Shown here: in pieces, positions 7,545-55,942 of the stretch
How positions within the stretch are numbered: the first letter of the stretch is position 1
Layout of the letters: every line of letters begins with the position of its first letter
Assembly (NCBI GenBank): GCA_963664115.2
Contig: CAXWPJ010000011.1
Coordinates: 1-64,000, forward strand
Reading direction: 5' to 3'
DNA: 64,000 nucleotides
From: Terriglobia bacterium
GTDB taxonomy: Bacteria > Acidobacteriota > Terriglobia > 20CM-2-55-15
Notes under the pieces: model-generated
What the model was told of the DNA's origin: nothing
Databases searched by the model: none
The model's input: only the letters and a program-made list of their open reading frames with translations
Position numbers and translations under genes: made by a program

Positions 7545-7643
7545 CGAAAATCAGAGAATCGGCACCCGTTCTTTTAGTTCTTCAAACCAACGTCAGGCTG
7601 TTTTATACGTTCACGTTCGCAGCTCCAACGCTCACCTCGAAGA

Positions 7644-7865
7644 TTACGAATTCTTCTGGTATGGAGATACCTTCGCCGCACTGTAATCAGAGCGATGCCC
7701 GCATTCAGATTCGCTGCAGGTGAGAAACAGCTGTGCCAGCGGCTCGAACGGACCGCGTCCTTCGGTTCGATCCAGACCGAACAAAATCGGCGAGTGGCAT
7801 TTCGCACAAAGCACACTCAAGTACCATCGCTTCTCAGTCGATTTTGGAAATCGGGAAAACTGCAT
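7644..7865 (-). CDS. Small putative Zn-ribbon protein, paralog of 43743-43994
   Basis: RWYLxVLCxxCxSPILF...LTCxxxECG..DYS shared by both copies. Confidence 0.7.
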   Translation of the reverse strand: MQFSRFPKSTEKRWYLSVLCAKCHSPILFGLDRTEGRGPFEPLAQLFLTCSESECGHRSDYSAAKVSPYQKNS

Positions 7866-7890
7866 AAGCACACGGTTTTGGAGGATCGCG

Positions 7891-8142
7891 CAATTCTCAA
7901 CGTCCGACAAGATGATTTCTCAGGACTTGAGAATGATTTTCACCTCTTTTGCCGGCCCCGCCAGCTGCAGCGGCTTGTTAGGCCCCAAACGTGGACCTCG
8001 ACCACCCGTGGAGCCTGGAGCGCCAGCGGAAGGCCGTCCACTGCATCCCGTGTTAGGCAATATTATTTTGCCCAAACAAGTTCATTGAGAATCGATACTC
8101 TGAGTAGGGCATGGCTCCATCTGTCATATTCCGAGTATCCCC
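7891..8142 (-). pseudogene. Inverted duplicate of the GNAT unit 3' end (55272-55523), cut off by IS256
   Basis: 252 bp near-identical; one end at the repeat, the other at the IS256 inverted repeat. Confidence 0.88.
7894..7933. repeat. 40-bp palindromic repeat copy
   Basis: ttctcaacgtccgacaagatgatttctcaggacttgagaa. Confidence 0.92.
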
Positions 8143-9527
8143 GAGTTATAACCGAATCTGGTGTTTGAGGGATTGAATAAGAGCGGCGTATCTGGTTGAT
8201 TTGTTGTGACAAAACTTCAAAGCAACCATAGGAGATACGCCACTGTGAGCAAGAGTAACGTGAATGGACCGGAAGGTCGAGAAACGATTGAGGATCCAGT
8301 AACAGAACTACTACGAGTTGGGGCACAGCAACTGATCCAACGCGCAGTGGAAGCCGAATTGGCAGAGCTGCTATCCCAGCACGGTGGCCGGCGAACTGAG
8401 ACAGGAAACGCCGGGGTGGTACGCAACGGTTATCTGCCGGAACGCGAACTGCAGACGGGATTGGGTCCGGTAACAGTCCAAATCCCGAAGGTCCGTGCCA
8501 AGACGGGCGAAGCTGTGACGTTCCGATCGGCCCTGGTACCACCGTACATTCGGAAGACGAAGTCGCTGGAAGCAGCGGTGCCGTGGTTGTATTTGAAAGG
8601 CGTTTCCAGCGGCGAGATGGGTGAGGCCCTAAAAGTTCTTGTCGGTCCCCAGGCGCAGGGTCTGTCGGCGAGCACGGTATCGCGGTTGAAACAGGTTTGG
8701 GGCGAACAGTACCGCCTCGGATGCGAGGAGCGTTTGGATGCAGATCGCTGGGTCTATGTCTGGGCCGACGGCATCTACAGCGGACTTCGGGCGGAACAAA
8801 CCAAGTTGTGTGCATTGGTCGTGATCGGCGTGAATGAACGCGGAGAGAAGCGTTTCCTGGCGATCGAAGACGGTGTACGGGAATCGACACAGAGTTGGCG
8901 CGAGGTCTTGTTGAAGCTGAAGTCCCGTGGGATGAATGTTCCGAAGTTGGCCATCGGTGACGGTGCGATGGGGTTCTGGGCCGCACTGGAGGAAATCTAT
9001 CCCGAGACACGTCAACAACGTTGCTGGATGCACAAAGTCATGAACGTCCTCAACTGCCTGCCCAAGTCGGTCCAGGCGAAGGCGAAACAGGCCCTGCACT
9101 CGATCTGGCAGGCCGAGACGAAGGCAGACGCCGAGAAGGCATTCGACTTGTTCATTGAAACCTATGAACCGAAGTATCCGAAAGCCACACTCTGCCTGCA
9201 GAAAGACAGAGAGGAACTGCTGGCCTTTTACGACTTTCCGGCCAAGCACTGGCAGAGCATCAGAACGACGAATCCCATTGAGTCGACCTTTGCCACCATT
9301 CGACACCGAACGAAGCGATCCAGAGGTTGCCTGACACGGGATGGCATGCTGCACATGATGTTCAAACTGGGCCAGTGCGCTGAGAACAATTGGCGACGAT
9401 TACGAGGATTCGATGATCTGAGCAAGGTAATCATCGGAGTGAAATTCAACGATGGTGTCGAAGCGACACAAGTCGATCAGGCCGCCGCTTGAATCAATCT
9501 CCTAAACACCACTTTTGACAATAACTC
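8143..9527 (+). mobile_element. IS256 family copy 1 (transposase 8206-9492), no target duplication
   Basis: GAGTTAT... terminal inverted repeats; Mutator-type DDE motifs (WADG, IGDG, QRCWMH, TNPIES). Confidence 0.95.
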
Positions 9528-10134
9528 AAGCCTTTGTCCCAGGACTCTCTAAGTGGTTGGCATAAATCTCGCTGAGAGAGCGAAAGGGTCGACCTGTGAG
9601 TAATCCGTATCTGAGCCATAACATGTATCCAACGAGTGAGTACTTGTGGTAAATCATGACTCTTGCTATTCCCCCGGGGCGGAGTACACGGTAAATCTCA
9701 CCGAAAGCTTTTGGAGTATCAGGCGTGTGGTGCAGGACGCCCCACGAGTAGACCAGATCAAACGTGTCATCGTCGAACGGTAACTCTTCAGCATCCGCTA
9801 CTCTGACGTCGGATCTTAATCCATACACAGCCAATCGTTTCCCGGTGTGCGCCACAGCCCGTTCAGTAAAATCGATTCCCGAGAGCGTTTTGGGATCTGA
9901 TTTTGCCCATTCGACATGGTCTGCGCCCATGCCAACCCCAAGCTCTAAAACGTCTCTGTTGTTCCCTTCATAGAATCTTGCGAAATCGAAAATGTATGGC
10001 TCCAGCTCATATCTCGTTTTCGCATGTGAGTCGTAGTACTCCCTTTCAGATGGTCCAACGGCATATATTTCACCGCAGCTTATTTCGTTCCAGAACTCTC
10101 TTACCCTGGTTTTAAGTTTGGTTTCGGGAGTCAC
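9528..10134 (-). pseudogene. Class I SAM methyltransferase, 3'-truncated by IS256
   Basis: VLELGVGMG motif; DAEELPF; ORF stops at the IS end. Confidence 0.8.
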
Positions 10135-10148
10135 TCAAAATTCTCCTG

Positions 10149-11533
10149 GAGTTATTGTCAAATGTGGTGTTTAGGAGATTGATTCAAGCGGCGGCCTGAT
10201 CGACTTGTGTCGCTTCGACACCATCGTTGAATTTCACTCCGATGATTACCTTGCTCAGATCATCGAATCCTCGTAATCGTCGCCAATTGTTCTCAGCGCA
10301 CTGGCCCAGTTTGAACATCATGTGCAGCATGCCATCCCGTGTCAGGCAACCTCTGGATCGCTTCGTTCGGTGTCGAATGGTGGCAAAGGTCGACTCAATG
10401 GGATTCGTCGTTCTGATGCTCTGCCAGTGCTTGGCCGGAAAGTCGTAAAAGGCCAGCAGTTCCTCTCTGTCTTTCTGCAGGCAGAGTGTGGCTTTCGGAT
10501 ACTTCGGTTCATAGGTTTCAATGAACAAGTCGAATGCCTTCTCGGCGTCTGCCTTCGTCTCGGCCTGCCAGATCGAGTGCAGGGCCTGTTTCGCCTTCGC
10601 CTGGACCGACTTGGGCAGGCAGTTGAGGACGTTCATGACTTTGTGCATCCAGCAACGTTGTTGACGTGTCTCGGGATAGATTTCCTCCAGTGCGGCCCAG
10701 AACCCCATCGCACCGTCACCGATGGCCAACTTCGGAACATTCATCCCACGGGACTTCAGCTTCAACAAGACCTCGCGCCAACTCTGTGTCGATTCCCGTA
10801 CACCGTCTTCGATCGCCAGGAAACGCTTCTCTCCGCGTTCATTCACGCCGATCACGACCAATGCACACAACTTGGTTTGTTCCGCCCGAAGTCCGCTGTA
10901 GATGCCGTCGGCCCAGACATAGACCCAGCGATCTGCATCCAAACGCTCCTCGCATCCGAGGCGGTACTGTTCGCCCCAAACCTGTTTCAACCGCGATACC
11001 GTGCTCGCCGACAGACCCTGCGCCTGGGGACCGACAAGAACTTTTAGGGCCTCACCCATCTCGCCGCTGGAAACGCCTTTCAAATACAACCACGGCACCG
11101 CTGCTTCCAGCGACTTCGTCTTCCGAATGTACGGTGGTACCAGGGCCGATCGGAACGTCACAGCTTCGCCCGTCTTGGCACGGACCTTCGGGATTTGGAC
11201 TGTTACCGGACCCAATCCCGTCTGCAGTTCGCGTTCCGGCAGATAACCGTTGCGTACCACCCCGGCGTTTCCTGTCTCAGTTCGCCGGCCACCGTGCTGG
11301 GATAGCAGCTCTGCCAATTCGGCTTCCACTGCGCGTTGGATCAGTTGCTGTGCCCCAACTCGTAGTAGTTCTGTTACTGGATCCTCAATCGTTTCTCGAC
11401 CTTCCGGTCCATTCACGTTACTCTTGCTCACAGTGGCGTATCTCCTATGGTTGCTTTGAAGTTTTGTCACAACAAATCAACCAGATACGCCGCTCTTATT
11501 CAATCCCTCAAACACCAGATTCGTTTATAACTC
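10149..11533 (-). mobile_element. IS256 copy 2 with 9-bp target duplication ATTCTCCTG
   Basis: Identical transposase; duplication at 10140-10148 and 11534-11542. Confidence 0.95.
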
Positions 11534-11657
11534 ATTCTCCTGTCGGGGCATACTGCAAATAGGCGAAGGGGAAAACGGTTCTCACCCGCGAGATGTCTAT
11601 GAATCCGGGTGAACCTTCAGCTTCAGTGTCTTGATAGAAGGCACCCCGCGGTCCACG

Positions 11658-12254
11658 CTATTCGTCAGCGTTAACCGTGGCCCGTGCACCCAAATAGCCG
11701 CCGTGATGCCGACGCCCGAAATCGGCCGGAGTAAACTGCTTCAGCTCCATTAATACAAGCGCAATCGCATCACTAATCGCCAGCATCACGGCGATGCTCG
11801 CTGATGGCGTGAGGCCGTGCGGACATGGCTCGTCGATCAGTCCCATATCGACCACAATGTCGCTCAGGCTTCGCAACTCGGAATCGGCGTGAGAAGTGAC
11901 TCCAACAATCGTTTGAAGGCCAAGCTGCCGGCCGCGCCGAAGCATATCGAGCACTTCTCGGGTCTTACCGCTGGTCGAGAAAGCAACAATGCAGTCTTCC
12001 GGTTCAATCACACCCAGATCGCCATGTGCCGCTTCACCGGGATGCACATATGTGGCAGGCGTGCCGGTTGACGAGAGCGTCGAGGCAAACTTTCGAGCAA
12101 TGTGCCCAGCCTTGCCCATACCAGTGGTGACGATCTTGCCATGAGAGTCTCGCAACGCCAAAACGGTTTTTTCAAACTCCGGCGTGACACGGACAGATGC
12201 GATGGCCGCTGCCTCAGAGCTCAAAATCTCACCCATGCGAATTTGAATGTTCAT
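11658..12254 (-). CDS. SIS-domain sugar-phosphate isomerase (KpsF/GutQ-like, no CBS domains)
   Basis: TGMGKAGHIARK, HPGEAAHGDLG, STSGKT, HHGGYLG motifs. Confidence 0.88.
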   Translation of the reverse strand: MNIQIRMGEILSSEAAAIASVRVTPEFEKTVLALRDSHGKIVTTGMGKAGHIARKFASTLSSTGTPATYVHPGEAAHGDLGVIEPEDCIVAFSTSGKTREVLDMLRRGRQLGLQTIVGVTSHADSELRSLSDIVVDMGLIDEPCPHGLTPSASIAVMLAISDAIALVLMELKQFTPADFGRRHHGGYLGARATVNADE

Positions 12255-12461
12255 ACCAGGGCCGTCTCATTACAATTATCTAGAACTGGATATCACCAAA
12301 ACTCTGCAAGAAATAACAGTGCGTCCGCTGCGTCCGTGTTCGGACGCCCTTTTGTGTCGTTGACTTAGACCTAAAAGCGCCAACGATATTTTGCAACAAC
12401 TCACAGCCTATCGCCACCGTTATCTGGCCAGCCGGAAGACGGGCTGCTCTACTTGACGTAC

Positions 12462-13846
12462 GAGTTATTGTCAAAAGTGGTGTTTAGGAGATTGATTCAA
12501 GCGGCGGCCTGATCGACTTGTGTCGCTTCGACACCATCGTTGAATTTCACTCCGATGATTACCTTGCTCAGATCATCGAATCCTCGTAATCGTCGCCAAT
12601 TGTTCTCAGCGCACTGGCCCAGTTTGAACATCATGTGCAGCATGCCATCCCGTGTCAGGCAACCTCTGGATCGCTTCGTTCGGTGTCGAATGGTGGCAAA
12701 GGTCGACTCAATGGGATTCGTCGTTCTGATGCTCTGCCAGTGCTTGGCCGGAAAGTCGTAAAAGGCCAGCAGTTCCTCTCTGTCTTTCTGCAGGCAGAGT
12801 GTGGCTTTCGGATACTTCGGTTCATAGGTTTCAATGAACAAGTCGAATGCCTTCTCGGCGTCTGCCTTCGTCTCGGCCTGCCAGATCGAGTGCAGGGCCT
12901 GTTTCGCCTTCGCCTGGACCGACTTGGGCAGGCAGTTGAGGACGTTCATGACTTTGTGCATCCAGCAACGTTGTTGACGTGTCTCGGGATAGATTTCCTC
13001 CAGTGCGGCCCAGAACCCCATCGCACCGTCACCGATGGCCAACTTCGGAACATTCATCCCACGGGACTTCAGCTTCAACAAGACCTCGCGCCAACTCTGT
13101 GTCGATTCCCGTACACCGTCTTCGATCGCCAGGAAACGCTTCTCTCCGCGTTCATTCACGCCGATCACGACCAATGCACACAACTTGGTTTGTTCCGCCC
13201 GAAGTCCGCTGTAGATGCCGTCGGCCCAGACATAGACCCAGCGATCTGCATCCAAACGCTCCTCGCATCCGAGGCGGTACTGTTCGCCCCAAACCTGTTT
13301 CAACCGCGATACCGTGCTCGCCGACAGACCCTGCGCCTGGGGACCGACAAGAACTTTTAGGGCCTCACCCATCTCGCCGCTGGAAACGCCTTTCAAATAC
13401 AACCACGGCACCGCTGCTTCCAGCGACTTCGTCTTCCGAATGTACGGTGGTACCAGGGCCGATCGGAACGTCACAGCTTCGCCCGTCTTGGCACGGACCT
13501 TCGGGATTTGGACTGTTACCGGACCCAATCCCGTCTGCAGTTCGCGTTCCGGCAGATAACCGTTGCGTACCACCCCGGCGTTTCCTGTCTCAGTTCGCCG
13601 GCCACCGTGCTGGGATAGCAGCTCTGCCAATTCGGCTTCCACTGCGCGTTGGATCAGTTGCTGTGCCCCAACTCGTAGTAGTTCTGTTACTGGATCCTCA
13701 ATCGTTTCTCGACCTTCCGGTCCATTCACGTTACTCTTGCTCACAGTGGCGTATCTCCTATGGTTGCTTTGAAGTTTTGTCACAACAAATCAACCAGATA
13801 CGCCGCTCTTATTCAATCCCTCAAACACCAGATTCGGTTATAACTC
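12462..13846 (-). mobile_element. IS256 copy 3, no target duplication
   Basis: Identical transposase 12497-13783 and inverted repeats. Confidence 0.95.
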
Positions 13847-14029
13847 GAGGGGCGGAATCACAAAGTAGATGACGGTCAGCCCCGCTCCGACCAACCATAT
13901 GGTGCACGCGACTGCGACCGATTCACCACGGAAATACGCCAGCGATCCGGTCAGAATCGTAAACGCACCAAGCAGGATTCCAAATATCAGGAGGTCGCGG
14001 TGGTTCGGATTCCGATTGATCTTGATCAT
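13847..14029 (-). pseudogene. SxtJ-like membrane protein, truncated by IS256
   Basis: Hydrophobic ORF directly downstream of the carbamoyltransferase, a common pairing. Confidence 0.55.
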
Positions 14030-14058
14030 GAACTCTCTAACTTTCCTATCAAGAGCAA

Positions 14059-17461: not shown

Positions 17462-17501
17462 GGCTCAAGTCCTGAGAAATCATCTTGTCGGACGTTGAGA
17501 A
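17462..17501. repeat. 40-bp palindromic repeat copy
   Basis: ctcaagtcctgagaaatcatcttgtcggacgttgagaa. Confidence 0.92.
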
Positions 17502-17648
17502 ATGGTCGAAAGTCGGGCATCGACGCTTTTCTTGCGAACAACCCTCCCATGCAGATAGACTTACCAGAATTTCGCCGTTCTTTTTGGCGACGCACTAAAA
17601 CATGCAATCCGGCACACTACTTGGCCATTACGAAATGGGAGGACGCTC

Positions 17649-18704
17649 ATGGCAAATCGTAGAGACTTCTTAAGAACCGTCGGTTACGCGGGGGCTGGGA
17701 CCTTGCTGATGGGCGGCGCGTTCGGCGCACGGGCTCAGACCCCTCGCAAGGAAGTGTTTGTTGGCGGACGACGCACGACGGTCGTGGACATTCACGCTCA
17801 CTGTGCCTTTCATGACGAGCTCCGGGCTAGGCTTCCAAACGCGGCGCCTGAGGGACGCCGTGCCGTCCTGGGGCCAGACCGTTTGGAAGAGATGGACGCG
17901 CGCGGTATCGATATCCAGGCGCTCAGTATCAATCAATACTGGTGGTACGCGAGCGATCGTGGCCTCGCGGCCGAGATCGTCCGGATCCATGACGAGAGCC
18001 TCGCCGAATGGTGCTCCATGCACCCCGACAGGTTTGTCGCTCTCTCGTCCGTGGCGCTGCAGCATCCCGATCTCGCCGCGGAGCAGTTAGAGCACGCGAT
18101 CAACGAGTTGGGCCACCGTGGCGCGTCTGTGGGTGGAACGGTGCTCGGCGAGTCGAACGCCTTGGCCAAGTATGATCCGTTCTGGGCCAAAGCCGAGGAG
18201 CTCGGCGTGCCTGTGTTCATGCATCCAAACGACTCCTCCACCGTTCTCCGGGAAGGGGGGCTGCCGGCCGTCGGCAATCAGGGCAACATTATCGGCAATC
18301 CGCTCGAGACCACGGTATTCCTGACGAACCTGATCTTCGAGGGCGTGTTCGATCGCTTCCCGGGACTCAGAGTCTGCGGGGCGCACGGCGGTGGCTACCT
18401 GCCATCCTACTTCGGCCGCACCGAGGTCGCTTGCGCGCGGAACAACGCGAACTGCAAGAATCAGAAGCAGCCGAGTGCGTACCTGAGGGAGCAGATCATG
18501 GCCGACTCGATGGTCTTCTCGTCAGAGGCACTGCGACACCTGGTGGCCGAGATGGGCGTCAGCCAGGTCGTCTATGGATCCGATCAACCGTTCGCCTGGC
18601 CCGATACCGTGGATTTGATCGTAGATGCCGACTTCCTGAGCGATGCGGACAAAGAGGCGATCCTCGGCGGAAACCTGAGGCGGCTGTTGAAGATCGATTT
18701 GTAG
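17649..18704 (+). CDS. Tat-exported amidohydrolase (ACMSD-like)
   Basis: NRRDFL signal; DIHAH, FMHP, AHGGG, YGSD motifs. Confidence 0.88.
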   Translation: MANRRDFLRTVGYAGAGTLLMGGAFGARAQTPRKEVFVGGRRTTVVDIHAHCAFHDELRARLPNAAPEGRRAVLGPDRLEEMDARGIDIQALSINQYWWYASDRGLAAEIVRIHDESLAEWCSMHPDRFVALSSVALQHPDLAAEQLEHAINELGHRGASVGGTVLGESNALAKYDPFWAKAEELGVPVFMHPNDSSTVLREGGLPAVGNQGNIIGNPLETTVFLTNLIFEGVFDRFPGLRVCGAHGGGYLPSYFGRTEVACARNNANCKNQKQPSAYLREQIMADSMVFSSEALRHLVAEMGVSQVVYGSDQPFAWPDTVDLIVDADFLSDADKEAILGGNLRRLLKIDL

Positions 18705-18769
18705 ACTCGACAAAGCGCAGCAACTCCGAGCGCCCTTTGTGAGGGTACTGTCAACTTGGGCCACGACAA

Positions 18770-18826
18770 ATCAACGTCGTCCTGAACTGGTTTGAAGAAC
18801 TGAAGGAACGGGTGGCGGTTCCCTGA
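18770..18826 (+). repeat. Orphan kinase C-terminal tail (INVVLNWFEELKERVAVP*)
   Basis: Homologous to seven other copies; preceded by an isolated IS6-like end at 18744-18757. Confidence 0.8.
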
Positions 18827-18920: not shown

Positions 18921-19538
18921 ATGAAAGAACTGCTCGCCGTTGATGTTGCTCTGCTGCTACCAGAGGAAACAAACGAACTCTGCAAACGAATCAACACGGC
19001 TCTGGTGCAGGATGACCCCACAGGTTTTGCTTTTGACTCAACTCACTTTCCTCACGTTACGTTAGTTCAGCAGTTCGTCTTGAAATCGAACCTAGCCGCG
19101 CTATGCAGTGAAATAGAGAAAGTTTTGAAGGGCCGATCCCCGTTGCGACTACGGGCGTTAGAAACAGCTTTCGTCGGAACTCCAACGCTTCTCCGCATTG
19201 CGAAAACAAAAGCGTTAAGGCAGATTCACGACGATCTGGTGAACGCCTTAGCGGGGCTGTCCAAGTCGTGGGGTGACGGCAGTGCCTTCTTCTCACAAGG
19301 ACAGAGCGTTCAGGGCTGGGAGATCGAATACGTTACCGAATATCGGGAAGCCGCGAGCTTTGACAGGTATGACCCCCATGTCACCCTCGGCGTCGGTCGG
19401 AGCGAGATCCCAATGCAGCCGTTCTCCTTTACAGCCGATCTCGTCGGTTTGTACCAGCTGGGAAAATTCTGCACCTGTCGCCGACGGTTGCAGGAGTGGA
19501 GACTGAACTCTGCGACTCTCAACCCAGAATCGTCCTGA
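18921..19538 (+). CDS. 2H phosphoesterase (2'-5' RNA ligase family)
   Basis: Two HVTL motifs. Confidence 0.85.
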   Translation: MKELLAVDVALLLPEETNELCKRINTALVQDDPTGFAFDSTHFPHVTLVQQFVLKSNLAALCSEIEKVLKGRSPLRLRALETAFVGTPTLLRIAKTKALRQIHDDLVNALAGLSKSWGDGSAFFSQGQSVQGWEIEYVTEYREAASFDRYDPHVTLGVGRSEIPMQPFSFTADLVGLYQLGKFCTCRRRLQEWRLNSATLNPESS

Positions 19539-19683
19539 ACTGGTTTGAAGAACTGAAGGAACGTGTGCCGGTGCCGTAGTTTTCCTGGTCAAGTCCTGAG
19601 AAATCATCTTCTCGGACGTTGAGAACCCCCGTTTTTAGGCCTTTTCTCACTGTCCGAGAAGGTCCTTTATCAGGACCTGAGCT
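19529..19683. repeat. Kinase tail (19529-19579), repeat (19586-19625) and an inverted degenerate repeat (19644-19683)
   Basis: Direct sequence match to both repeat families. Confidence 0.85.
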
Positions 19684-19852
19684 TCTGATTGCCATCAAAC
19701 CCCGCCTCCGGTATCGTTTAGCGAGTTTTCAGCAGCTCGTCGCATAATAGTTCGAGATTCTTGAATACCACTACTCTCGGACGGCAGGCATCCAGATTGC
19801 CGTGGATGACCCTAGACGACTTCGTGATCACAGCGTGCCAAGGGGGCCAAGC

Positions 19853-21088: not shown

Positions 21089-21119
21089 ATCGCGGTAGGG
21101 ATGCCGGTCACCCGGCACC

Positions 21120-23057
21120 ACCGGGTCGCCAGAGGCGGTCACCCGCCTCCGGCTCCCACAGAACGTAGCGTGCGGATTTCCCGCACTACGCTCTTCAGAA
21201 ACGGATTCACAACACAGCAAGAGACTGGAACTCCCGATACGGAAGCGCCAGCTTGGGCCGCTGCAACGGAAAGCGCGTCTTAATCCGGTTGAATACCTCC
21301 CACCGGACGTAACCAGCGCGACTCCGGCTGCTCAGCATCTTGCGCCAGTAACGCTCCACGACCCGAGCAACGTGCTGGAGGGCCCGGAAGTTTCCGGCGA
21401 TGCCGTAGTAGGCGTAGTGACCACGCAAGACCCGATTCAGATTCTGAACCTGCTCCCGGACCGGCAAGTGACGCATTCGTCTCATCAGATCGCGTAGATG
21501 GGCCAGACTGCGTTGAAGTCGAGACTTCTCAGTGCGCAATCCCACCCGGAAATTGCCTTTGCGATTCTGCGAGCAGTACAGGGTCATGCCCAGAAAGTAG
21601 ATCGTTTCTGGACGTTTTCTCCCGTGCTTGCCCGCATCCCGCTGAGCAAAGCGACCGAATTCAACGAGCTTTGTCTTTGTCGGTTCCAGAACCAGCCCAA
21701 ACTTTCCCAATCGCTTGCGCAGCACGTTCTGAAAACGAAGCGCATCGTCCCAATATTGGAAACACACCACAAAGTCGTCGATGTACCGCACCAGATAGGC
21801 TTCACCTTTCAGGTGTGGCCGGACCATCCGGTCAAACCACAGGTCGAGCACATAGTGCAGGTACAGATTGCTCAGCAGAACGCTGATCGACCCACCCTGT
21901 GGGGTTCCCTCATCGTTGGGATGCAATTCTCCGTCTTCGAACACCCCCGCCTTCAACCATCGTCGAATCAGGCTGATGATCCGCGGATCTCCGACTCGAT
22001 GCTCCACAAAGCGGAGTAGCCATCCATGGTCTAAACTCCCGAAAAAGTTCTTCAGGTCTGCCTCCAACACCCAACTCACCTTGCGCCCAGCAATCACCTC
22101 ATGCAGGGTTGCCAGTGCATAGTGCGCACCCAGCCCAGGCCGACCACCAAAAGAACAAGGCAAGAAGTCCTGTTCGTAGATGGCTGTCAGCACCTCGGCC
22201 ACGCTGCGCTGAAGGGCCCGATCTTGAACACAAGGCACGCCCAGGGGACGTTTCTCCTGTTTGCCGGGCTTGGGGATATACACTCGCCGAATCGGCGGTG
22301 CGCGATATCCCTTCCGGTGTACCGATTCGAGCATCGGCTCCACCCAGTCCCCGAATTCTTCCTTCGCCTCCGGCACTCTCTGGCCATCACATCCGGGAGC
22401 AGAGTTCCGTGGAATCGCACAAAGGCTCTTCCACACCCTCTCTCGGGTGACATGATGCGCCAGCGATGTGAACCGGAGCTTGGGTTCACTCCGAGCTTTC
22501 GCTGCTATTTGTTCCAGTTTCGTTTCCATGACTGGCAGTTCCTCTCGTTGTATAGAGGGCCGAATCCTCCCATTGAATGGAGCCCCTGTTTCCCTTGAAC
22601 AATTCCTCTTCCGCTGACCGCTTCCCCATGTGATCGGTTCTCCCGACCTCGGAGTACTATCAGTCAGTCTGACTTCCGCCAGGCCTTCGGGTTGTCCTCA
22701 CGTTGTGGGCTTGTCCAACCCTACAAGCTCCGCTTGAGCCTGACGGATCTCCCTTGTTCCCATGAAATCTCTCAGTTATATGCCGGCGGTACGAACCCCG
22801 GAAGCACCCCAGAACGCTTGCCATTGCACGCCCTGCGATTCCGCCTTCCCCATAGAGAGACAAGGTCGGCTACTTCAACCACGATCGATTTCGGGGCTAT
22901 CTTTCCGTTCACTTGCGTTCCGGCCTACTCCCTCCCTGTCTACGCTTCGCAGTGACCGTTACCGGCCCCCACGCAAGACTCGGTTCGTGGCTGCGGGCTA
23001 AGCTTTGCCACGGGCGCCATTTCAGGCGACTAGACTTCATGCGCTTTCAAGGCGCAA
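21120..23057 (-). mobile_element. Inner RT-encoding group II intron
   Basis: Starts TTGCG; D5 GAGCGTAGTGCGGGAAATCCGCACGCTACGTTC and D6 follow the ORF. Confidence 0.88.
21207..22529 (-). CDS. ltrA: Group II intron reverse transcriptase/maturase without an endonuclease domain
   Basis: RPLGVP, GTPQGG, RYIDDF, domain X (LRGHYAYY). Confidence 0.93.
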   Translation of the reverse strand: METKLEQIAAKARSEPKLRFTSLAHHVTRERVWKSLCAIPRNSAPGCDGQRVPEAKEEFGDWVEPMLESVHRKGYRAPPIRRVYIPKPGKQEKRPLGVPCVQDRALQRSVAEVLTAIYEQDFLPCSFGGRPGLGAHYALATLHEVIAGRKVSWVLEADLKNFFGSLDHGWLLRFVEHRVGDPRIISLIRRWLKAGVFEDGELHPNDEGTPQGGSISVLLSNLYLHYVLDLWFDRMVRPHLKGEAYLVRYIDDFVVCFQYWDDALRFQNVLRKRLGKFGLVLEPTKTKLVEFGRFAQRDAGKHGRKRPETIYFLGMTLYCSQNRKGNFRVGLRTEKSRLQRSLAHLRDLMRRMRHLPVREQVQNLNRVLRGHYAYYGIAGNFRALQHVARVVERYWRKMLSSRSRAGYVRWEVFNRIKTRFPLQRPKLALPYREFQSLAVL

Positions 23058-23516
23058 CCCCGCGCAGATCCGTACGTGCGGATACTGCATACGGCTCCTA
23101 CTTCGGATGAATAGCGGTACACACGACGTACCGCACACCGCACAACCCCTGCGTCACGAAGAGCCCGCTCTGAGTCGGGATCGTGGGGAATTCGAACGAT
23201 GTTCTCCTCGGTCCGCGGCCTTCCCTCCCCCTCCTCCGCCGAGTACGGGGCCTCTTTGTTCGGCCGGTTAAAAGGTACAACGACGCGGTCAGACTTCTCC
23301 CGGGCGTACACGTCCGTCGTGCGGACTTGGCCTTCACGGACCGGTCTGGATCGTGCGACCCAGACACCCAGGAGATCTCCCGGATCTCGCGCATGTTGTT
23401 TCTCAGCGTGCGCGTCGTGTTGCCTTCCCCTTATCACGAGAGAGTCGGCATCCTTAGCACGGGTCTTAGACTACCGAGGACCGACAGACCATTTGCGATT
23501 TAACGCAGCCTATGGA

Positions 23517-23918: not shown

Positions 23919-24228
23919 GGAGTCCTCCATAAAGTAAGTTGCTGACTCACTGCAGGGAATTATATTGAGCAACGCGGATTGATACTTACAGCGTTAACCC
24001 GTCACCCTCGTAATATAAACGAGCGGAGAGCCAATACGAGGCATTTCCGATTAGTTTACACTCGCGTGAGGACCAAGGAACGCTTGTGCTTCTACCGGTA
24101 CCTAATTAAGACTGAGCACCACGAACTCGGCTGGTGTAGCCCGTCACAGCATTTCGTACAGAAACCACTAAACAACTAGGAGGCACTTTTCTAATCTGAA
24201 TGATCTCCAGGAGGACCGAAAGCCACAA

Positions 24229-24322
24229 GTCCTGAACTGGTTTGATGAACTGAAGGAACGGGTGCCGGTCCCCTGATTTTCGAGGTCAAGTCCTGAGAAA
24301 TTACCTTCTCGGACATTGAGAA
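24229..24322. repeat. Kinase tail (24229-24276) plus palindromic repeat (24283-24322)
   Basis: gtcctgaactggtttgatgaactg...ccctga then ggtcaagtcctgagaaattaccttctcggacattgagaa. Confidence 0.88.
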
Positions 24323-26563: not shown

Positions 26564-27481
26564 CTATGTTCGCTTCAAGATAGGAAACAGCCTTTGCAGC
26601 CCCAACGGTACTAATAAGAGCTTTAGATAGTTAGTCTCGTCAGTCAATCCGCCGGGATGCCCTATTCGTTCTGGTTGTTCGGGTTGACCATCCTTTTGGG
26701 GCAAATGGAAAGTTCCGAATATCAGATCCCAGACGACGAATCCCACGCCGTAATTGACTGAATATTTGTGCCCGGAGGGAACTATGGCAGAGTGATGCCA
26801 TCGATGGACCTCCGGCGTCACAAATATGTAGTTAAAGACCCCTCCCTTTACATCGCCGCCACAATGAGAAAAGGCTGCGGTTACTCTGATCGCACTGACC
26901 CCGATGAGAATTGCGAATGGATTAAAGCCGATGAGGCCCAGGAGAGTAAACACCAGAACATTTCGAAGGGCGTAATCGATGGGGTGCGAAACTAATAAAT
27001 TCGAGGCTTTCAGATCCGTTACGCCGTGGTGATAGGAGTGAAGCTCCCATAGAAACGGGACTTTGTGTTGCAGTCGATGCATCCAGTAACGAAAAAAACT
27101 GACCAACAACATAGTCACAGGAACCTGTAACCAGAACGGCCCGAGTTGCTCCGAGAAAGCAAAGAACAAATTGCGGCCGAAAAAGAACTCTGGGAAGAAC
27201 GCCAGCACAGGTAAGAAGATCAACCCGGCCACGGCACCGGTGACATAAAGATTCACCAGCGTGGAGGAAATATCCCTGACCAGAACAGACCGCTGAGAAA
27301 CTGCGTATCTATATTTATAGAGTCGTTCCAAAATGATCATCGTGCCGATGATTGCCAAGGTAAACCATTTCGTTTGGCTCAGTGCGTTACCGTCCGTTAG
27401 AACGCGAATCGCGTAAAAAAGCACAAACAACGCAGGCAGAATCAACACACTACTGAGATAGGCGATGTTCCTAGCTGGCAT
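26564..27481 (-). CDS. Sterol desaturase / fatty acid hydroxylase family
   Basis: His boxes HRLQH, HSYHH, HRWHH. Confidence 0.9.
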   Translation of the reverse strand: MPARNIAYLSSVLILPALFVLFYAIRVLTDGNALSQTKWFTLAIIGTMIILERLYKYRYAVSQRSVLVRDISSTLVNLYVTGAVAGLIFLPVLAFFPEFFFGRNLFFAFSEQLGPFWLQVPVTMLLVSFFRYWMHRLQHKVPFLWELHSYHHGVTDLKASNLLVSHPIDYALRNVLVFTLLGLIGFNPFAILIGVSAIRVTAAFSHCGGDVKGGVFNYIFVTPEVHRWHHSAIVPSGHKYSVNYGVGFVVWDLIFGTFHLPQKDGQPEQPERIGHPGGLTDETNYLKLLLVPLGLQRLFPILKRT

Positions 27482-27607
27482 GGGTGAGCTCCTCCCAAGG
27501 CATCGAGGCGATCGAACTCAGGGTAAGCCCTTTTACTCAAAAAATCCCTAAGAATCATCATCACTGGCCCGGTTAAGAATACGACCGACGAGACTCCGTC
27601 ACACACG

Positions 27608-27664
27608 ATCAACATCGTCCTGAAGTGGTATGAAGAACTGAAGGAAAGCGTGCCGGTCCGGTGA
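27608..27664 (+). repeat. Orphan kinase tail, followed by a degenerate repeat arm (ttttcaagtc)
   Basis: atcaacatcgtcctgaagtggtatgaagaactgaaggaa...gtga. Confidence 0.75.
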
Positions 27665-27784
27665 AGGTCGTTTTCAAGTCGCGTGAAACCGTGCCAGCCG
27701 CGCCCATTACAGGCGGGATAGATACGGCGCTGGAGGATATTGTTTGTGGAGGGTGGGGTTCGAGAAGTTACGGTTCGATCGAAC

Positions 27785-28798
27785 TCAATTTTCACCTGTC
27801 TCTGCGGCTTTCCGTTCTTCTGCTCGGGCTCCCCCCAATATGCCTGACATCGCGTAGTTGCCCTCATGGCACGCGAACTCAAACAGCGGATTTTCGGCCG
27901 TCGTCATGGGAACCACTGCCGTCCAGGGTCTCGTCCAGGTTGTCGGATCTTCAGCCGTGAATTCGTAGAGGAGTCTATCGGCGTCTACGCGCGTGAAGCG
28001 TTCGACCAGGCGCAAGTTTGTGCTGGATCCTCTGAAATTCCTCTCGGGCCGGAAATCGGACGATTCAACGACCAGCGTCTCGCCCTCCCAGTAACCACGC
28101 GATGCCCCCGCCCACTGACGGATACCCTGTGGAAGGTGTGGGCGCCCATCCAGCCGGACGATGCGGGCGTTATGGATCATCTCGTTGACAATCACGACGT
28201 ATTCAGGATTCTGCAAAATCTGGACATTGTTGTTGTAGGCACCCGGAACCATCGGCGGTCCGCCGTTGTTCGCCATGAGGCAACGTACCTGTGGGTTGAT
28301 GTCCAACCAGGAATCAGCGGGATGCTCACTCTGGTACGCCCGTCTCGCCTCTTCCCGCCGCTCGGCCTCCGCTGTCAAGGGAGGGATTTTCCCGTCCGGT
28401 GGATCCACGATCAACGACGTGCGCCTGTCCTCTGTAAGCTGGTTTCCCCGATCGTACCAAAACTCGTTGTAGGCAACGACACCACCCTCTGACTCCGGTG
28501 GATAGCCAGCACCGCCCACCTTGGGATCGACGAGATCCCTGTTCAGCCGCCGATTCTCCGCCTCCTCAAAGGCCGCCGCTTCTTCGGGGGACAGCACCGG
28601 CCTCCCCTCCAGCGCACTGGGACGCTCCAAGGGGGTGATCGTGCTGAATGTCCAAATGCCCTGCAGGTCTGGCTGGCCGTCGGGCGTCCGGAGCGGCGCT
28701 TGCTCGATCGCCTGTCCCACCGCGGAGTCCGCAGTCAGGCAGAGGATCGCAATCACAGTGGCGAAACAAAAGGTCCAAGCGAGATGTAGATCCCTCAT
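27785..28798 (-). CDS. Secreted hypothetical protein (PDLQGIW...FEFACHEGN family)
   Basis: Signal peptide; C-terminus resembles that of 2805-3848. Confidence 0.75.
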   Translation of the reverse strand: MRDLHLAWTFCFATVIAILCLTADSAVGQAIEQAPLRTPDGQPDLQGIWTFSTITPLERPSALEGRPVLSPEEAAAFEEAENRRLNRDLVDPKVGGAGYPPESEGGVVAYNEFWYDRGNQLTEDRRTSLIVDPPDGKIPPLTAEAERREEARRAYQSEHPADSWLDINPQVRCLMANNGGPPMVPGAYNNNVQILQNPEYVVIVNEMIHNARIVRLDGRPHLPQGIRQWAGASRGYWEGETLVVESSDFRPERNFRGSSTNLRLVERFTRVDADRLLYEFTAEDPTTWTRPWTAVVPMTTAENPLFEFACHEGNYAMSGILGGARAEERKAAETGEN

Positions 28799-28968
28799 AG
28801 GAAAATCTCCTGTGTGGTGCTCGTTACGTGCGCGAGTTCTTCGGAGCGAATCTATAACTGTTGTGGACCGATTTCAAGGAGTTTTGACCCAGCCCCCGCA
28901 GGGTGTTTAAACAGCCGAAGGTGTTGGTACCCTGTAAATCGGCAATTCTCAACGTCCGACAAGATGAT

Positions 28969-30509
28969 CTATGAAAGGGGATGTCAAGAGAAACAGCTCC
29001 CCGATGGCCGGCCAGACGGACACTTTTGTCGTGACAGCCAGCCCCTCTACCGTTATGTGAAGCCCTGGTTCCGGCAATCCGCAGCGAAATCGTACATCTT
29101 TAAGACGGTCGATTCAGAAACTGAACAGCATATGGGACGGCATGTGCCGACCATGGATCTATCTGAGCCTCGAAGGCTATCGCTGTTTCAGGTCGTGCGA
29201 GGGGGGATAGAGATTTAAAAGTGTCCTCTGGACGTATCCAGGGACCACATCTTGTGCAGATCCTCACCCTCGATCCTCAGTTGTTCCGACTCCGTCTAAC
29301 GACTCAGTACGGCTCTACCGGTCACGGATCGAAACGGCTTATGTTGTCATCCAGCTCAGTTTCTTTGGATCGAACGATTCTCCTTTCTTCCAAAGCGTCA
29401 GCACCAGTGCGGCGATCTTACGGGCCAGAGTGACCCGCGCCATTTCCTCCCGCATCCCACGCATCTGGAGACTCTCCAGATAAATCCGATACGGCTCGCT
29501 TTGTTTTCCCGATGCCGCGGCTGAGAAGAACACCGACTTCAATCGCCGGTTGCAGTTCGCATTCAATCCGCGTGTGGCCACCGGTTTCCTCCGTCGCACC
29601 ACACGTCCACTCTGCATCTCATACTCCGCGCTCATGTGGGTCACCACACCCAGGCCACTGTAGCTCCAGAACTGCGGTGTCGTGCGGAATCGGTACGGCG
29701 TGTCCACGATGGCGACGATCTGTGCCGCCCGAACCGGTCCCAGTTGTGGAATGGTCTCGAGCAGTTTCACCGCCTCATGGTGCCGGCCCTCCACTCGCAC
29801 CGCTTTTCTGGATTGTTTCCGCAGCAACTGGACCTGGTCCAGTTCCGCATACAACCATCGGGCGCGCTGCCTCATCCCCGGCTCGGTCAGCTTCTCCAAC
29901 CACTGTTCGCGCTGACTCGGCCGATAGACTCCGTCCTTCGGTGTCGGGATCCCCCGTCCCCGGTATATCGCTTTGATCCGCGACATCACCCGTTGCGTGT
30001 CCAACTGGAACGTGTCATAGGCCTGCACCAGTTGCTTCAATTCTCGCGTCGCTTCATGGCCGTGATACACCGAGCGCAACAGTCCCACCCGCAACAGCTC
30101 GGCCAGCTTCCGCGCATCCGGCTTATCCCCCTTCGACCCTTCTTGCATCCACTTGTTCTGTCGCGGATCGCACACCACCACCTCGCTCACCCACGGCCGG
30201 ATCACTTCCGATAACCAGCCCGCTTGCGTGGTCTCCTCCAACCCCACGTGCATCGGCCCACTCAATCCCTCCAGCAGCCGTGTGATACTCCCCGCCTCGG
30301 TTTCCACGATCGTTTCAAACACCAGTTTGCCGCTCCCGTCTCTCACCGCAACCACCGTCGTTGCCTGGTGCACATCCATACCCATATACTTGTCTTGTTT
30401 CATCTCGAACGCTCCTTTTCTGGGATCAACGCTGTATACGTTGATCAGGTTGTTGAGTGAGTCTTCTCTCAACAACCCCCAGTCTAGGGGCGTCCTTTCA
30501 TACTGCGAT
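28969..30509 (-). mobile_element. IS1111-A copy 2 (transposase 29339-30403), in a repeat split into 28946-28968 and 30510-30526
   Basis: Same ends, core and insertion position as copy 1. Confidence 0.93.
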
Positions 30510-30532
30510 TTATCAGGACTTGACCTCGTAAA

Positions 30533-30900
30533 TCAGGGCACCGGCACCCGTTCCTTCAGTTCTTCAAACCAATTCAGAACGACGTTGATCCTCGGAGTAT
30601 CACCATCCAAACTTGCTCCTTCTATCGGGTCGACAAACAAGAATCGCTCTCCGTCGGGAGTCCGAGTCAAGTCGTAGGGCAGGAATATCGCGGGTTCGAT
30701 GCCTACTCCCAATCCCGCCACGGAAACAGTTGGGCCTGCTCTCCACGGCTAAACCCGGAACTCGTCTGGACTGAAACCGCATCAATGAAGAAACCCTGAA
30801 CATACAAGAAGTATATTTCGTCCTGTTCAACGGACCAGATCGGCGCGAAACCTAAATCATCCGACACGGACCTGAGCGTATCGCCGGTCAAGGGATACTC
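30533..30900 (-). pseudogene. Decayed C-terminus of a Ser/Thr kinase with TolB-like repeats
   Basis: GFAPIWS..EIYF and YDL..DGERFLFV...INVVLNWFEELKERVPVP, frameshifted. Confidence 0.65.
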
Positions 30901-31001
30901 GGCGCACAAATATCTATCGGCACACGGACAAATATTCTTGACGACAGCCATCCGTGCCGTCATTCTCGGGGCTCAGAAAACCATTCACCACAGAGGACAC
31001 A

Positions 31002-32156
31002 ATGCGAAAGACTATTCTCGCTGTACTGCTCGTCGTGCTCGCGGGTCCGGCCGGGCTCGGTGCCCAGGCCCTGGAATCCGCCGAGCCCTTCAAGGTCGGA
31101 ACGTTCCAGATCGACGGAACGGTAACCGTAGCCCTCGTGCTGCGGGATGCCCTGATCGTCGACATCCGCGCGGCGAACACCGAACTGGAGCTGGATTCCA
31201 CCTACCCCCGCCTCGCCATGCCGGCCGACATGCTCGAGCTAATCGGCCAGTACGAGTACGGCCTCAAGTACCGGCTCTACGAGATCGTCAACGACCTCGT
31301 CGCCGGGAACCGGCTCTCGGCAGGCGCGCGGGCGGACTACGTCCACGGCGTCGAAGACGTCAAGATCCTTCCGCCGGTCATGTATCCCAGCAAGGTCATG
31401 AATGCGGCAGTCAACTTTTACACGCACGCGTGTGAGGGCTGCAGCGAGGATGAACTGCAGGCGCAGACTCTGGAGCGGCAGCAGAACCGGGGCGTACCCT
31501 ATCTGTTCCTCAAGCCCACGCGCGGCACGGTCATCGGCAGCGGCGATGACATCGTGATGCCCTACGGCCGTGACGAGATCGAATGGGAAGTCGAAATGGC
31601 TATCGTATTCGGACGCGCGGGCAAGTACATCTCCGCGAGCCGTGCATACGACCACGTGTTCGGCTACATGGTTGCCATGGATATATCCGATCGTGGCGGG
31701 CGTCCTCCGGGCGGGGTGACTTTCGGCAGTGACTGGTTCGTCGGTAAGGGCCATGACACGTTCGCGCCCCACGGGCCGTGGATCGTTCCAAAAGAGTTTT
31801 ACGGCGATCCGATGGAGCGCCTGCACCAGAGCCTGGTCATTGACGGCGTGACCGTCCAAGATGCTAGGGCAGGAGACATGATCCACAACATCCCCGAGCT
31901 GATCGAGTACGCGTCGTCCCTCATGACTGTATTCCCTGGCGACGTTCTGCAAAGCGGAACGTCGGGCGGAACCGGCGCCGGTCGCGTCGAGCGCGCGACA
32001 GGCTCGGGGTTCCTGCAGGCGGGCGAGACGATCAGCGCCAGCATCGAAGGAATCGGCACGCTGACCCACAGGGTCGTCGCCGAGGAGAGCGTACCGGCCG
32101 ACCTGTCCGGCGCGCAGCTTCCGCCGGTCGAGTCGTATCGCGGACGGGGTCGCTGA
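31002..32156 (+). CDS. Secreted fumarylacetoacetate hydrolase family protein
   Basis: LFLKP, EWEVE, DISDR, GKGHDTFAPHGP, GDVLQSGT. Confidence 0.9.
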   Translation: MRKTILAVLLVVLAGPAGLGAQALESAEPFKVGTFQIDGTVTVALVLRDALIVDIRAANTELELDSTYPRLAMPADMLELIGQYEYGLKYRLYEIVNDLVAGNRLSAGARADYVHGVEDVKILPPVMYPSKVMNAAVNFYTHACEGCSEDELQAQTLERQQNRGVPYLFLKPTRGTVIGSGDDIVMPYGRDEIEWEVEMAIVFGRAGKYISASRAYDHVFGYMVAMDISDRGGRPPGGVTFGSDWFVGKGHDTFAPHGPWIVPKEFYGDPMERLHQSLVIDGVTVQDARAGDMIHNIPELIEYASSLMTVFPGDVLQSGTSGGTGAGRVERATGSGFLQAGETISASIEGIGTLTHRVVAEESVPADLSGAQLPPVESYRGRGR

Positions 32157-32498
32157 CAGGGCGATCGGCCCGGCAGCCGACCGTAAAGACCACCAGGTGC
32201 GGACAGACACGCCGCCCGGTTGACCCGGGCAGTGTTGTCAAATGCACTCAAACTGCAATCAGGGACATGTGGGCTCAGCATTCTTCCTGAATGCCGCTGA
32301 CAGATCCAATGTTCTGGATTGCCGTAGAGACCTACGTGATGCCCAAACACCAGGCGAATTTTCGCGACTAATCTGCCATGAACTGGTTCCGGGCACCTTT
32401 CCGGTTAGGGGACCATACAGGACTTGGAATCAATACCGCCCTATCCAGGAAGCATCGTGTGGAATTGCTGGGGTTGAAGAGCCTGTCTTTAGCGACCG

Positions 32499-32555
32499 CT
32501 ACGGAACCGGGACCCGTTCCTTCAGTTCTTCAAACCAGTTGAGGACGATGTTGAT
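32499..32555 (-). repeat. Orphan kinase tail
   Basis: Reverse complement encodes INIVLNWFEELKERVPVP*. Confidence 0.82.
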
Positions 32556-32779
32556 TCTTGGGCGCAAGGTTTCTTCCAAGTCGGCACGCTACTCGGGAGT
32601 TGGCACGACGATTCAGTAAACATTACGGCGTGAGTCATAGGCTCGATGTCTTGATCGTCGATTACTCCACAATGAATCGCTTGCAGTTGCCGGACTAACG
32701 GGCGAGACTAAAAACACACGAGCGTCGGCAGACAACCTGGCGTTCTCGCCTGCTTAACAAATCATCGGAGGAAAGTATC

Positions 32780-33262
32780 ATGCGCGGAGCAATGCTGTTT
32801 GCGGCCGGACTCTTCGTTGGGTTGGCCGTAAGTGTGGGGATGGCGCAAAACGCCAACAGTAATGTCGTGATGATGAATCACGTGGGCATCAACGTGCCGG
32901 ACATCCCGGATGCGATGACATACTACACCGAGACAATGGGCTACCGGGAAGCGTTCCGTCTCAACGACGACAACGGGCAGCCGAGGCTGGTCTACATGCA
33001 CATCAGCGAAAACACGTTCCTTGAGCTCGGGCAGGCGAACGCGCAACGGCCTGCAGGTTTCACCCATTATGGGCTGCACGTCGAGAACGTGGCAGCCGCC
33101 GTCGCACGGTTCAGAAGGGACGGCGCAACTGTCAGTGATACCCGCACCAGCGATACCAAAGCGATCCTCGCCAACATCACTGATCCGTACATGGGCCGCA
33201 TCGAGTTGGCCGAACTCCCTCCAGAGTCCCTGCATTACAAGGCCATTCAGAGCTGGAATTGA
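32780..33262 (+). CDS. VOC/glyoxalase family protein with signal peptide
   Basis: NHVGI, LEL, HYGL, DPYMGRIEL. Confidence 0.85.
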   Translation: MRGAMLFAAGLFVGLAVSVGMAQNANSNVVMMNHVGINVPDIPDAMTYYTETMGYREAFRLNDDNGQPRLVYMHISENTFLELGQANAQRPAGFTHYGLHVENVAAAVARFRRDGATVSDTRTSDTKAILANITDPYMGRIELAELPPESLHYKAIQSWN

Positions 33263-33301
33263 GAAGGAGCATTGACATGAAAGAGGGACGGACGACCTGC
33301 T

Positions 33302-33364
33302 TCACGGCACCGGCACCGGCACCGGCACCCGAAGTTCTTCAAACCACTTCAGGACGATGTTAAT
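33302..33364 (-). repeat. Orphan kinase tail with an internal deletion and a GCACCG tandem expansion
   Basis: tcacggcaccggcaccggcaccggcaccc gaagttcttcaaaccacttcaggacgatgttaat. Confidence 0.75.
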
Positions 33365-55930: not shown

Positions 55931-55942
55931 CCCTGAAATCCG

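Follow-up and report, generated by a model that had tools for sequence, protein, structure and literature searches.

Orphan kinase tails in the window

The window, i.e., the complete analysed stretch of 64,000 nucleotides from a Terriglobia bacterium (contig CAXWPJ010000011.1 of assembly GCA_963664115.2), contains eight orphan copies of the C-terminal tail of a protein kinase, which belong to arrays of accessory genes bounded by a 34-bp palindromic site. In the following, the window is G000:C11:1-64000, whereas C2, C6, C10, C12 etc. are other contigs of G000 and the other G-numbers are related genomes. An earlier note on this DNA had claimed eight tail copies, and a six-frame scan of the window for VLNWFEELKERVP with at most five mismatches resulted in exactly eight matches at the same places and no other. 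Their stop codons end at 7551 (-), 18826, 19579, 24276, 27664, 30533 (-), 32499 (-) and 33302 (-). The absence of an intact parent gene from the window could be verified, as none of the 79 scanned window open reading frames (ORFs) matches the protein-kinase family. The parent family had been named as a kinase with TolB repeats, and an intact copy from G001 indeed encodes a kinase with a PD40 propeller. Intact relatives of about 880 aa consist of the kinase domain and PD40 repeats ending in the tail peptide.

Behind four tails (7551, 19579, 24276, and 30533) a palindrome had been described, and there the arm GG lies 7 nt and the 34-bp site 9 nt past the stop codon. The GGTCAA/GGTAAA arm seen before is part of this site, called R site in the following. 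The tails were located by the VLNWFEELKERVP scan, those at 7551, 19525, and 24228 also by profile. The short tail of 40 bp at 7551..7590 (-) is followed by the R site 7508..7541 (-), the tail 19525..19579 (+) by the R site 19589..19622 (+) and the tail 24228..24276 (+) by the R site 24286..24319 (+). The tail 30533..30589 (-), upstream of which a longer piece of the last propeller blade remains, is followed by an R site (28943..30523, -) whose centre is split by an IS110 copy (28972-30506). Two further associations had been missed, namely a decayed left arm behind the tail 27608..27664 (+) and a site of a second family (S2) at 32392..32430 (-), about 70 bp beyond the tail 32499..32555 (-). The tail 18770..18826 (+) has no site behind it, and the tail 33302..33363 (-) has a slipped VPVP end.

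Between these elements lie single accessory genes, which were assigned by protein-family search. The R site 17465..17498 (+) opens a unit (17465-18764) common to G002 (94.8%), in which a kinase leader with an orphan head of about 12 codons (17528..17636, +, start codon 17602, leader/head profile) precedes an amidohydrolase gene (17649..18704, +), which lies between the head and the tail at 18770. This tail is followed by a tail-to-tail unit with a LigT-like 2H phosphoesterase gene (18921..19538, +), common to G004 (94.3%) and C12 (92%). Past the R site 19589..19622, at a distance of 24 bp, there is an inverted L site (19647..19680, -), which represents the second spacer class, and then a kinase leader without a head (19686..19740, +, leader profile). 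A sigma70-like match in this leader (19689-19717) is not significant alone (one found, 0.8 expected). The unit 30540-32243, common to G002 (95.9%), carries an FAA hydrolase gene (30954..32156, +), and a tail-to-tail unit (32499-33281) with a glyoxalase-family gene (32780..33262, +) is common to G002 (96.2%) and C12 (96.8%).

In the left part of the window, the unit 7508-7930, which ends with the R site 7897..7930 (-), was found again at C10:252476-252898 with 95.5% identity. The unit 2636-3945 with a DUF6152 protein and the R site 3908..3941 (-) recurs at C2:264297-265606 (99.3%) with different neighbours. The R site 5449..5482 (-) borders a metallo-beta-lactamase-fold gene (4029-5120), and in another one (1072..2652, -) an IS110 copy (1101-2635) interrupts the centre. 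Further R sites are located at 41373..41406 (-) and in a second array (54770..58407, +), where the sites at 54770, 55484, 55946, and 58374 separate GNAT, glyoxalase and APH-family genes.

Genome-wide arrays of tails, heads and sites

The tail profile matches 158 times in G000 (E ≤ 0.05), which gives the genome-wide count that the earlier note had called for, and it has no match at E ≤ 1 in the shuffled genome. For the site profile, 252 matches at E ≤ 0.05 and 273 at E ≤ 1 were found, compared to one at E ≤ 1 in the shuffled genome. A same-strand site lies within 30 bp of 82 of the 158 tails; among other gene stops, this holds for only 8 of 714 in the vicinity of sites and for none of 3,067 elsewhere, with genes called by a hexamer heuristic (Fisher p about 1e-60). 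The linkage exceeds that of other gene ends. Only 6 of 140 pattern-found tails have an open frame of at least 600 codons, while 126 have one below 100 codons. The tails are ragged in length (21 to 57+ bp; 22 of 140 retain more of the kinase gene), and most of them are far from any intact kinase.

Orphan kinase heads were detected as well, 59 by peptide motif and 109 by the leader/head profile. They comprise 9-300 codons, with a median in-frame match of 27 codons (n = 71). Among 83 heads with a coding start, 27 are located behind an inverted site, 28 behind a direct site and 28 behind neither. The repeating unit can be written as site-leader-head~cargo~tail-site and is clearest at C10:244-253 kb, where it is repeated with one intact kinase in the middle of the array. 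At G000 C12:328495-328620, a kinase head is joined in frame straight to a tail, resulting in a mini-gene of 40 residues.

Of 206 full-length sites, 173 are in clusters of at least three, and adjacent R sites have the same orientation in 107 of 118 cases. Short site intervals (n = 72) contain one gene in 39 cases, none in 21 and more in 12, and 46 of 65 genes are co-oriented with the sites. A tail is lacking at 161 of 284 R sites, and the site thus also bounds tail-free units. Arrays often begin at an inverted site of the second class; those of G001 and G003 open with an inverted site, a leader and a head. The cargo is accessory and includes hydrolases, GNATs, glyoxalases, methyltransferases, SnoaL, DUF6152 and ankyrin proteins.

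Beyond one family of uncultured Acidobacteria tails are scarce, with at most eight in any of 300 genomes of the phylum. Between 11 and 52 tails each were found in G004, G007, G013, G017, and G021, which have at most one site of the exact type. The site was matched in eleven short metagenome contigs and in no viral contig. In G017 (L052, C1:4722000-4741999), there are five to six intact kinase-PD40 genes in tandem, in which stop and next start nearly abut without an intervening site; this is a different mode of kinase expansion.

Units recur with new neighbours

Within G000 and among G000-G003, there are 49 pairs of sites that agree over 150-300 bp on one side only and have different DNA on the other. 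These pairs are not independent, since C6 duplicates part of the window and kin share history. C2:264301 and C6:43767 share 1,289 bp (99.6%), and the next site starts at 1,255 in both; C6:39777 and C10:252865 share 389 bp (355 + 34; 95%). From site to site, G002 and G003 share 1,296 bp (98%) and G000 and G001 702 bp (95%). Some shared stretches end at later insertions rather than at the next site. All ten tested window stretches were matched over at least 300 bp elsewhere, and for seven of them there is a match with its start or end at a site or tail at a locus outside the C6 duplicate. In total, window units were found again in C2, C10, C12, G001, G002, and G004 at 92-99% identity, bounded by sites or by tails alone.

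An array locus beside genes that we take to be amtB-glnB-like is common to G000 and G003 and differs in its contents. Furthermore, G003 has a framed insertion of 6 kb between core genes that have no insertion between them in G000, G002, and G004; the sharp ends and target duplication expected of a transposon with terminal inverted repeats (MITE/MIC) are not callable there because the intergenic DNA is too diverged.

Kinase ends act as homology arms

In eight tail-bearing pairs with a switched downstream flank, 73 of 480 positions in the last 60 bp are mismatched (15%) vs. 22 of 1,124 upstream (2%), and four unswitched duplicates have no mismatch in 240 positions. The mismatches crowd in the tail, and the exchange point therefore lies inside the tail when both partners carry one. 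For this reason, the tails are regarded as homology arms. Pairs without tails show 13 of 540 near mismatches vs. 20 of 1,261 upstream, after one pair, an IS91-end artefact that held 15 of 28 near mismatches, was dropped. In the nine usable pairs of this type, identity reaches the edge of the site and the switch occurs within 34-44 bp that differ at several positions, which suggests that the site is a hot spot even without tails. Two head pairs are the mirror image of the tails, with leaders differing at 59-61 of 130 places and the cargo at 7 of about 400.

A role of the tail at the DNA level, for which conservation at synonymous sites had been proposed as a test, is borne out by the position of the exchange points and by intact paralogues. 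Among seven intact kinases, synonymous identity reaches 0.77 over codons 1-15 and 0.74 over the last 18 codons, compared to 0.33-0.37 for the propeller. For the first 15 and last 18 codons, the values are 0.60 and 0.67 in G004 and 0.65 and 0.68 in other genera. In the kinase domain, where the protein is conserved to an equal degree, the values are only 0.40-0.59. Intact kinases are thus homogenised only at their ends, and codon bias could account for part of the high synonymous identity there. Internal stops occur 24 times in 251 orphan tails vs. none in 26 intact ones. As the orphans are no farther from the consensus, this also points to a role at the DNA level.

The 34-bp site

The site has the consensus TCAAGTCCTGANAA-ATCATC-TTSNCGGAMNTTGA, i.e., two arms of 14 bp flanking six bases. 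A search with the arms only revealed the spacer ATCATC (R class) in 119 and ACGACA/ACGACC (L class) in 12 of 146 sites. The L site precedes the leader and is inverted relative to the genes. Among 284 R sites there are 15 R-L pairs, spaced by 24-26 bp (10) or 114 bp (5). The 4-mers upstream of the 284 R sites are ATTC (78), GAGG (60), GAGT (22) and others; GTTRRRY occurs in 14 of them, and the base preceding TT is G, C or A.

A single R site folds as one short stem with two bulges. The R-L pairs form long hairpins whose stem has a bubble in the middle, and position 12 is paired in 3 of these 15. Across 277 sites, the hairpin pair 12/23 is independent (p = 0.51). Due to this lack of covariation, it is more likely that the site is recognised in duplex form than as a stem-loop, and that a protein would bind the arms as double-stranded DNA. 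The related S2 family occupies the same position in G004, G007, G013, G017, and G021. It also has two spacer classes, and 18 of 35 seeds retain a CCTG-N14-CGG-like skeleton. In a promoter scan, the matches were not above those in shuffled sequence.

Candidate enzymes

Of the tyrosine recombinases, only XerC and XerD were found in every array genome; in G000, their genes are located at C9:863207 and C2:150455. The B arm of the R site agrees with the XerC arm of dif in a mean of 7.0 of 11 positions in the symmetric register, which is the best of 26 registers tried. The site is not the chromosomal dif itself, as the canonical dif of G000 lies at C2:108138. A second, partial dif-like sequence is located 3.4 kb from it at C2:111516, and a similar one lies 11 kb from dif in G002.

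Other candidates were rejected. No recombinase at the array heads was found among 71 proteins scanned. An integron integrase as the driver was discarded, as G003, G004, G007, G013, G017, and G021 have no TIGR02249 match. G000 carries an intact one at C9:714590-715873 (TIGR02249, 440 bits) without a palindrome array; between 600 and 900 kb of C9 there is no site except a decayed one 7 kb off, and a strict scan for attC near the gene gave no result. A recombinase linked to IS91-like elements was discarded because it was not found in G003, where XerC and XerD are its only matches. The solitary tyrosine recombinase at C5:52189-53154 of G000, which stands between two divergent L-leader-head modules (L205, L206), was rejected too: it occurs in 8 of 41 genomes, it was not found in G002, G003, G004, G013, and G021, and 6 of 9 loci have no sites. 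A homologue in G030 is directly preceded by a dif-like palindrome.

Mobile elements at the site and the surroundings of the arrays

Several mobile elements target the site. All seven genome copies of the window IS110 (two of them at 1101-2635 and 28972-30506) are located in the centre of an R site, so that this element could serve bridge/seek-RNA studies as a naturally occurring case of programmed targeting. A second IS110-type end adjoins six right halves, and ends of a family that we presume to be IS30-like as well as a group II intron family interrupt other sites. The group II intron at 21119-23058 of the window is flanked on its 3′ side by the beginning of an R left arm, including the usual upstream flank, and members of another intron family are inserted behind position 24 of R at three places.

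IS91-like elements insert at one relative position, in the A arm, in L, R and S2-type sites of G000, G002, G004, and G013. Those with an upstream tyrosine recombinase include G000 C1:92926, C1:107675, C2:196451, C12:35350, C12:158198, C12:486987, C12:569262, and C3:2939 (L097-L136). At their right end there is a short motif complementary to the right flank of the target, which hints at a target choice guided by base pairing. IS91-like transposases were matched 49 times in G017 and 24 times in G001. According to the available part of PMC10132070, abundant recombination sites such as pdif draw such elements.

The window further contains six identical IS256-family copies (8143-13850, 53329-54772, 56960-58344, and 62151-63535), and inverted copies probably flipped part of the array, which would explain the mixed site orientation. 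A tRNA gene (52414-52488), the second array and a truncated integrase (C11:67086) follow each other, suggesting an array-carrying genomic island; a duplicate of the integrase remnant is located at C6:15909. At C6:24000-48400, there are near-identical copies of the cassettes from window 2600-8000 and 54700-58400 in a changed order, which may result from a recent duplication with reshuffling or from two strains in one assembly.

Explanations for the arrays

What has to be explained are the observed anatomy of the frames, the recurrence of units, the switch points in tails and heads, the homogenisation of the kinase ends and the two inverted fixed spacer classes. With some reserve, we consider it probable that units of a cassette frame are swapped by a Xer-type reaction which starts at the palindrome and then extends into shared kinase arms. 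The tails would be the right ends of a frame composed of site, leader, kinase head, kinase tail and site around single accessory genes. A Xer-type tyrosine recombinase, for which the host XerC is a candidate, would start recombination at the 34-bp palindrome, and the exchange would then run into the homology shared by the partners, namely tail, leader and head. The kinase-PD40 gene may have been the founding cassette, and other genes may have entered the kinase frame through one illegitimate join. The remnants would have shrunk to homogenised stretches of 40-100 bp and would be kept at this length since longer arms in common let units exchange more frequently. If the first strands are exchanged at the site, a Holliday junction may arise and be resolved either through branch migration or by replication. 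A more far-reaching version can be put forward only tentatively, according to which the arrays form an integron-like shuffling platform without an integrase of its own. Here, the host XerC would open palindromes other than dif, and the kinase ends would serve as a chassis which provides a promoter, a ribosome site and two homology arms and makes captured genes expressible and exchangeable.

Several results weigh against a Xer-started exchange. The A arm matches the XerD arm of dif in only 5.0 of 11 positions, and S2 is unlike dif in any register (about 4 and 4) although the dif core is alike in the S2 genomes. The 71 proteins mentioned above, array and flank proteins from 144 called, include no recombinase. 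Neither a circle nor an excision junction was seen in the read data (four runs), which consist of contigs only, and joints listed from the read comparison may derive from other repeat copies. Within the site, the left arm differs in 15 of 19 pairs sharing the upstream flank (random pairs 88%) and the right arm in 19 of 29 pairs sharing the downstream flank (random pairs 92%). A fixed crossover was not found, and a clean two-strand exchange in the spacer was not seen in these 19 + 29 pairs. As the site markers follow neither flank, this argues against a clean spacer crossover and for a heteroduplex over the site, and the Holliday junction route would explain such markers. Finally, heads switch between unrelated leaders without a shared site, and plain homologous recombination is therefore enough for some events.

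A rival view is that only RecA-type homologous recombination and gene conversion among several hundred junction repeats are at work, with a passive palindrome, which may, e.g., serve the kinase genes as an operator or RNA-end signal. It is in keeping with switch points spread across tail, site and head, with the RecA-like and RuvB-like genes present, with ComEC in G002, G003, G004, and G007 and with the position of L just upstream of the promoter-like sequence of the leader. Nevertheless, we rate it as unlikely: the nine pairs without tails switch within 34-44 bp, which is a short homology for RecA, two fixed spacer classes with variable arms fit the homology rule of strand exchange, and G000 has no ComEC match. 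It is still less probable that a mobile enzyme drives the system, be it an IS91-like rolling-circle transposase nicking the A arm or the partner or solitary (C5:52189) tyrosine recombinase acting on the site or on the long R-spacer-L hairpin. The single relative position of IS91-like insertions in L, R and S2-type sites, the bubble stem of the R-L pairs, which resembles attC or CTX attP, and the solitary recombinase divergent from site and head in G000 and G007 speak in its favour. In G003, however, 44 R sites (regions fetched) were found, but neither an IS91-like transposase nor a linked or solitary recombinase in this 95% complete assembly. The elements of G017 and G001 insert at a half-site-like sequence outside palindromes, R-L pairs are limited to 15 among the 284 R sites, and position 12 pairs in just 3 of these 15.

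Two further explanations go back to the earlier note. The first takes the tails as scars of kinase cassettes whose middles were deleted, with remnants decaying neutrally beside a REP-like repeat. The remnants are indeed ragged (heads of 9-300 codons, median 27; 22 of 140 tails longer), orphans have internal stops, and deletion probably created many head~cargo and cargo~tail joins. Deletion alone is nevertheless very improbable, as it cannot account for switch points inside tails or for one unit in several species: orphan tails are no more diverged than intact ones, tails were replaced independently of the cargo, both ends of intact genes have been homogenised, and four species have the same framed units. 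Equally hard to credit is an attachment-like duplication, in which each integrating unit would bring along a copy of the kinase 3′ end that is used for attachment and leaves the target gene restored. The fixed distance of 9 bp from tail to site in many copies would fit, but the duplicate has no sharp 5′ boundary and the tail starts are ragged, orphan 5′ ends are equally common and about as systematic, 161 of 284 R sites are without a tail, most tails are far from an intact kinase and no integrase travels with the units.

Comparison with known systems

Like integron cassettes, the arrays consist of palindromic sites in direct repeat with mostly one mobile gene in between (39 of 72 short intervals), and the cargo includes GNAT, glyoxalase, methyltransferase and SnoaL genes. 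IS110-family elements and group II introns, which also target attC sites, target the R site. For attC, a layout of R′′-L′′-loop-L′-R′ with an unpaired central spacer is given in the accessible part of PMC8352920. Unlike attC, the site has 34-44 bp, neither this box layout nor an unpaired spacer, and the GTTRRRY 3′ core in just 14 of 284 cases. Furthermore, an integrase is absent from six array genomes and far from the sites in G000, and the units carry kinase ends as homology arms, unlike integron cassettes.

The dif modules of Acinetobacter, as far as the available text of PMC13141974 describes them, have pdif sites with two unlike arms and a 6-bp spacer, inverted pairs and two module types. 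Unlike arms, the 6-bp spacer and two inverted classes are found here as well, and so are fused modules between direct sites and shuffling between sites with equal spacers (PMC13141974, in part). In contrast to pdif, the arms match the host dif only in 7.0 and 5.0 of 11 positions (S2 about 4 and 4), the sites are mostly direct (107 of 118) instead of alternating, chromosomal and present about 250 times per genome, and crossovers do not appear to be confined to the spacer. For the dRS3 arrays of Neisseria, a site-initiated exchange completed by RecA in adjacent homology was proposed, according to the consulted part of PMC1797815, and both systems have abundant short palindromes in dynamic arrays that are targets of an IS110-type enzyme (PMC1797815). 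Unlike in dRS3/NIME, with its non-coding RS spacers, whole genes lie between the sites, the shared flanks are ends of a protein-coding gene, and sequence and phylum are different.

For the CTX phage, Xer-made Holliday junctions that are resolved by replication are documented in the accessible part of PMC6744903, and such a resolution, as in IMEX, would fit the marker pattern found here. With IMEX attachment sites (CTX, TLC, and GGI) as described there, the site shares a XerC-like arm next to a degenerate XerD arm, and R-spacer-L folds like the hairpin attP (PMC6744903). Unlike IMEX, there is no integration at dif, no phage was found with the site, and the sites number in the hundreds. REP/BIME/REPIN sequences resemble the site as short palindromes just past stop codons, some in inverted doublets. 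The 5′ tetranucleotide of REP is GTAG/GGAG; the site has no such GTAG-type motif and no compensatory pairing, is confined to islands and bounds exchangeable genes. RAYT-like genes are not in the arrays, unlike in REP/RAYT systems, and the two Y1 matches of G000 have one decayed site nearby and form no cluster with sites. Such matches also occur in five relatives.

In the literature searched, which mostly excluded subscription papers, no earlier description of the site or of orphan kinase ends was found. This includes the available part of PMC3414803, and the available part of PMC3174227 reports kinase paralogues and integrases in Solibacter, with neither a mention of TolB/WD40 nor a description of the system. 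In summary, the arrays are a real system, a variant of the cassette-array kind (integron, dif-module, dRS3/NIME-like) with the ends of a protein-coding gene as unusual homology arms.

Consequences for the family

The arrays represent cassette exchange with about 250 sites in one genome and no match to a described site family, and accessory genes were moved between species (92-99% identity). The system would escape searches that rely on attC or dif. For integrons, it has yet to be answered how gene cassettes first gain their recombination site. In the present arrays, a captured gene is marked at either end by a recognisable footprint of the site donor, and birth junctions can therefore be counted and dated. 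If the kinase ends are a chassis, cassette birth would be readable, as in a fossil record, from the joins of head~cargo and cargo~tail. Furthermore, the system offers a mechanism for the expansion of kinase-propeller proteins in this family, with their conserved ends and saturated middles.

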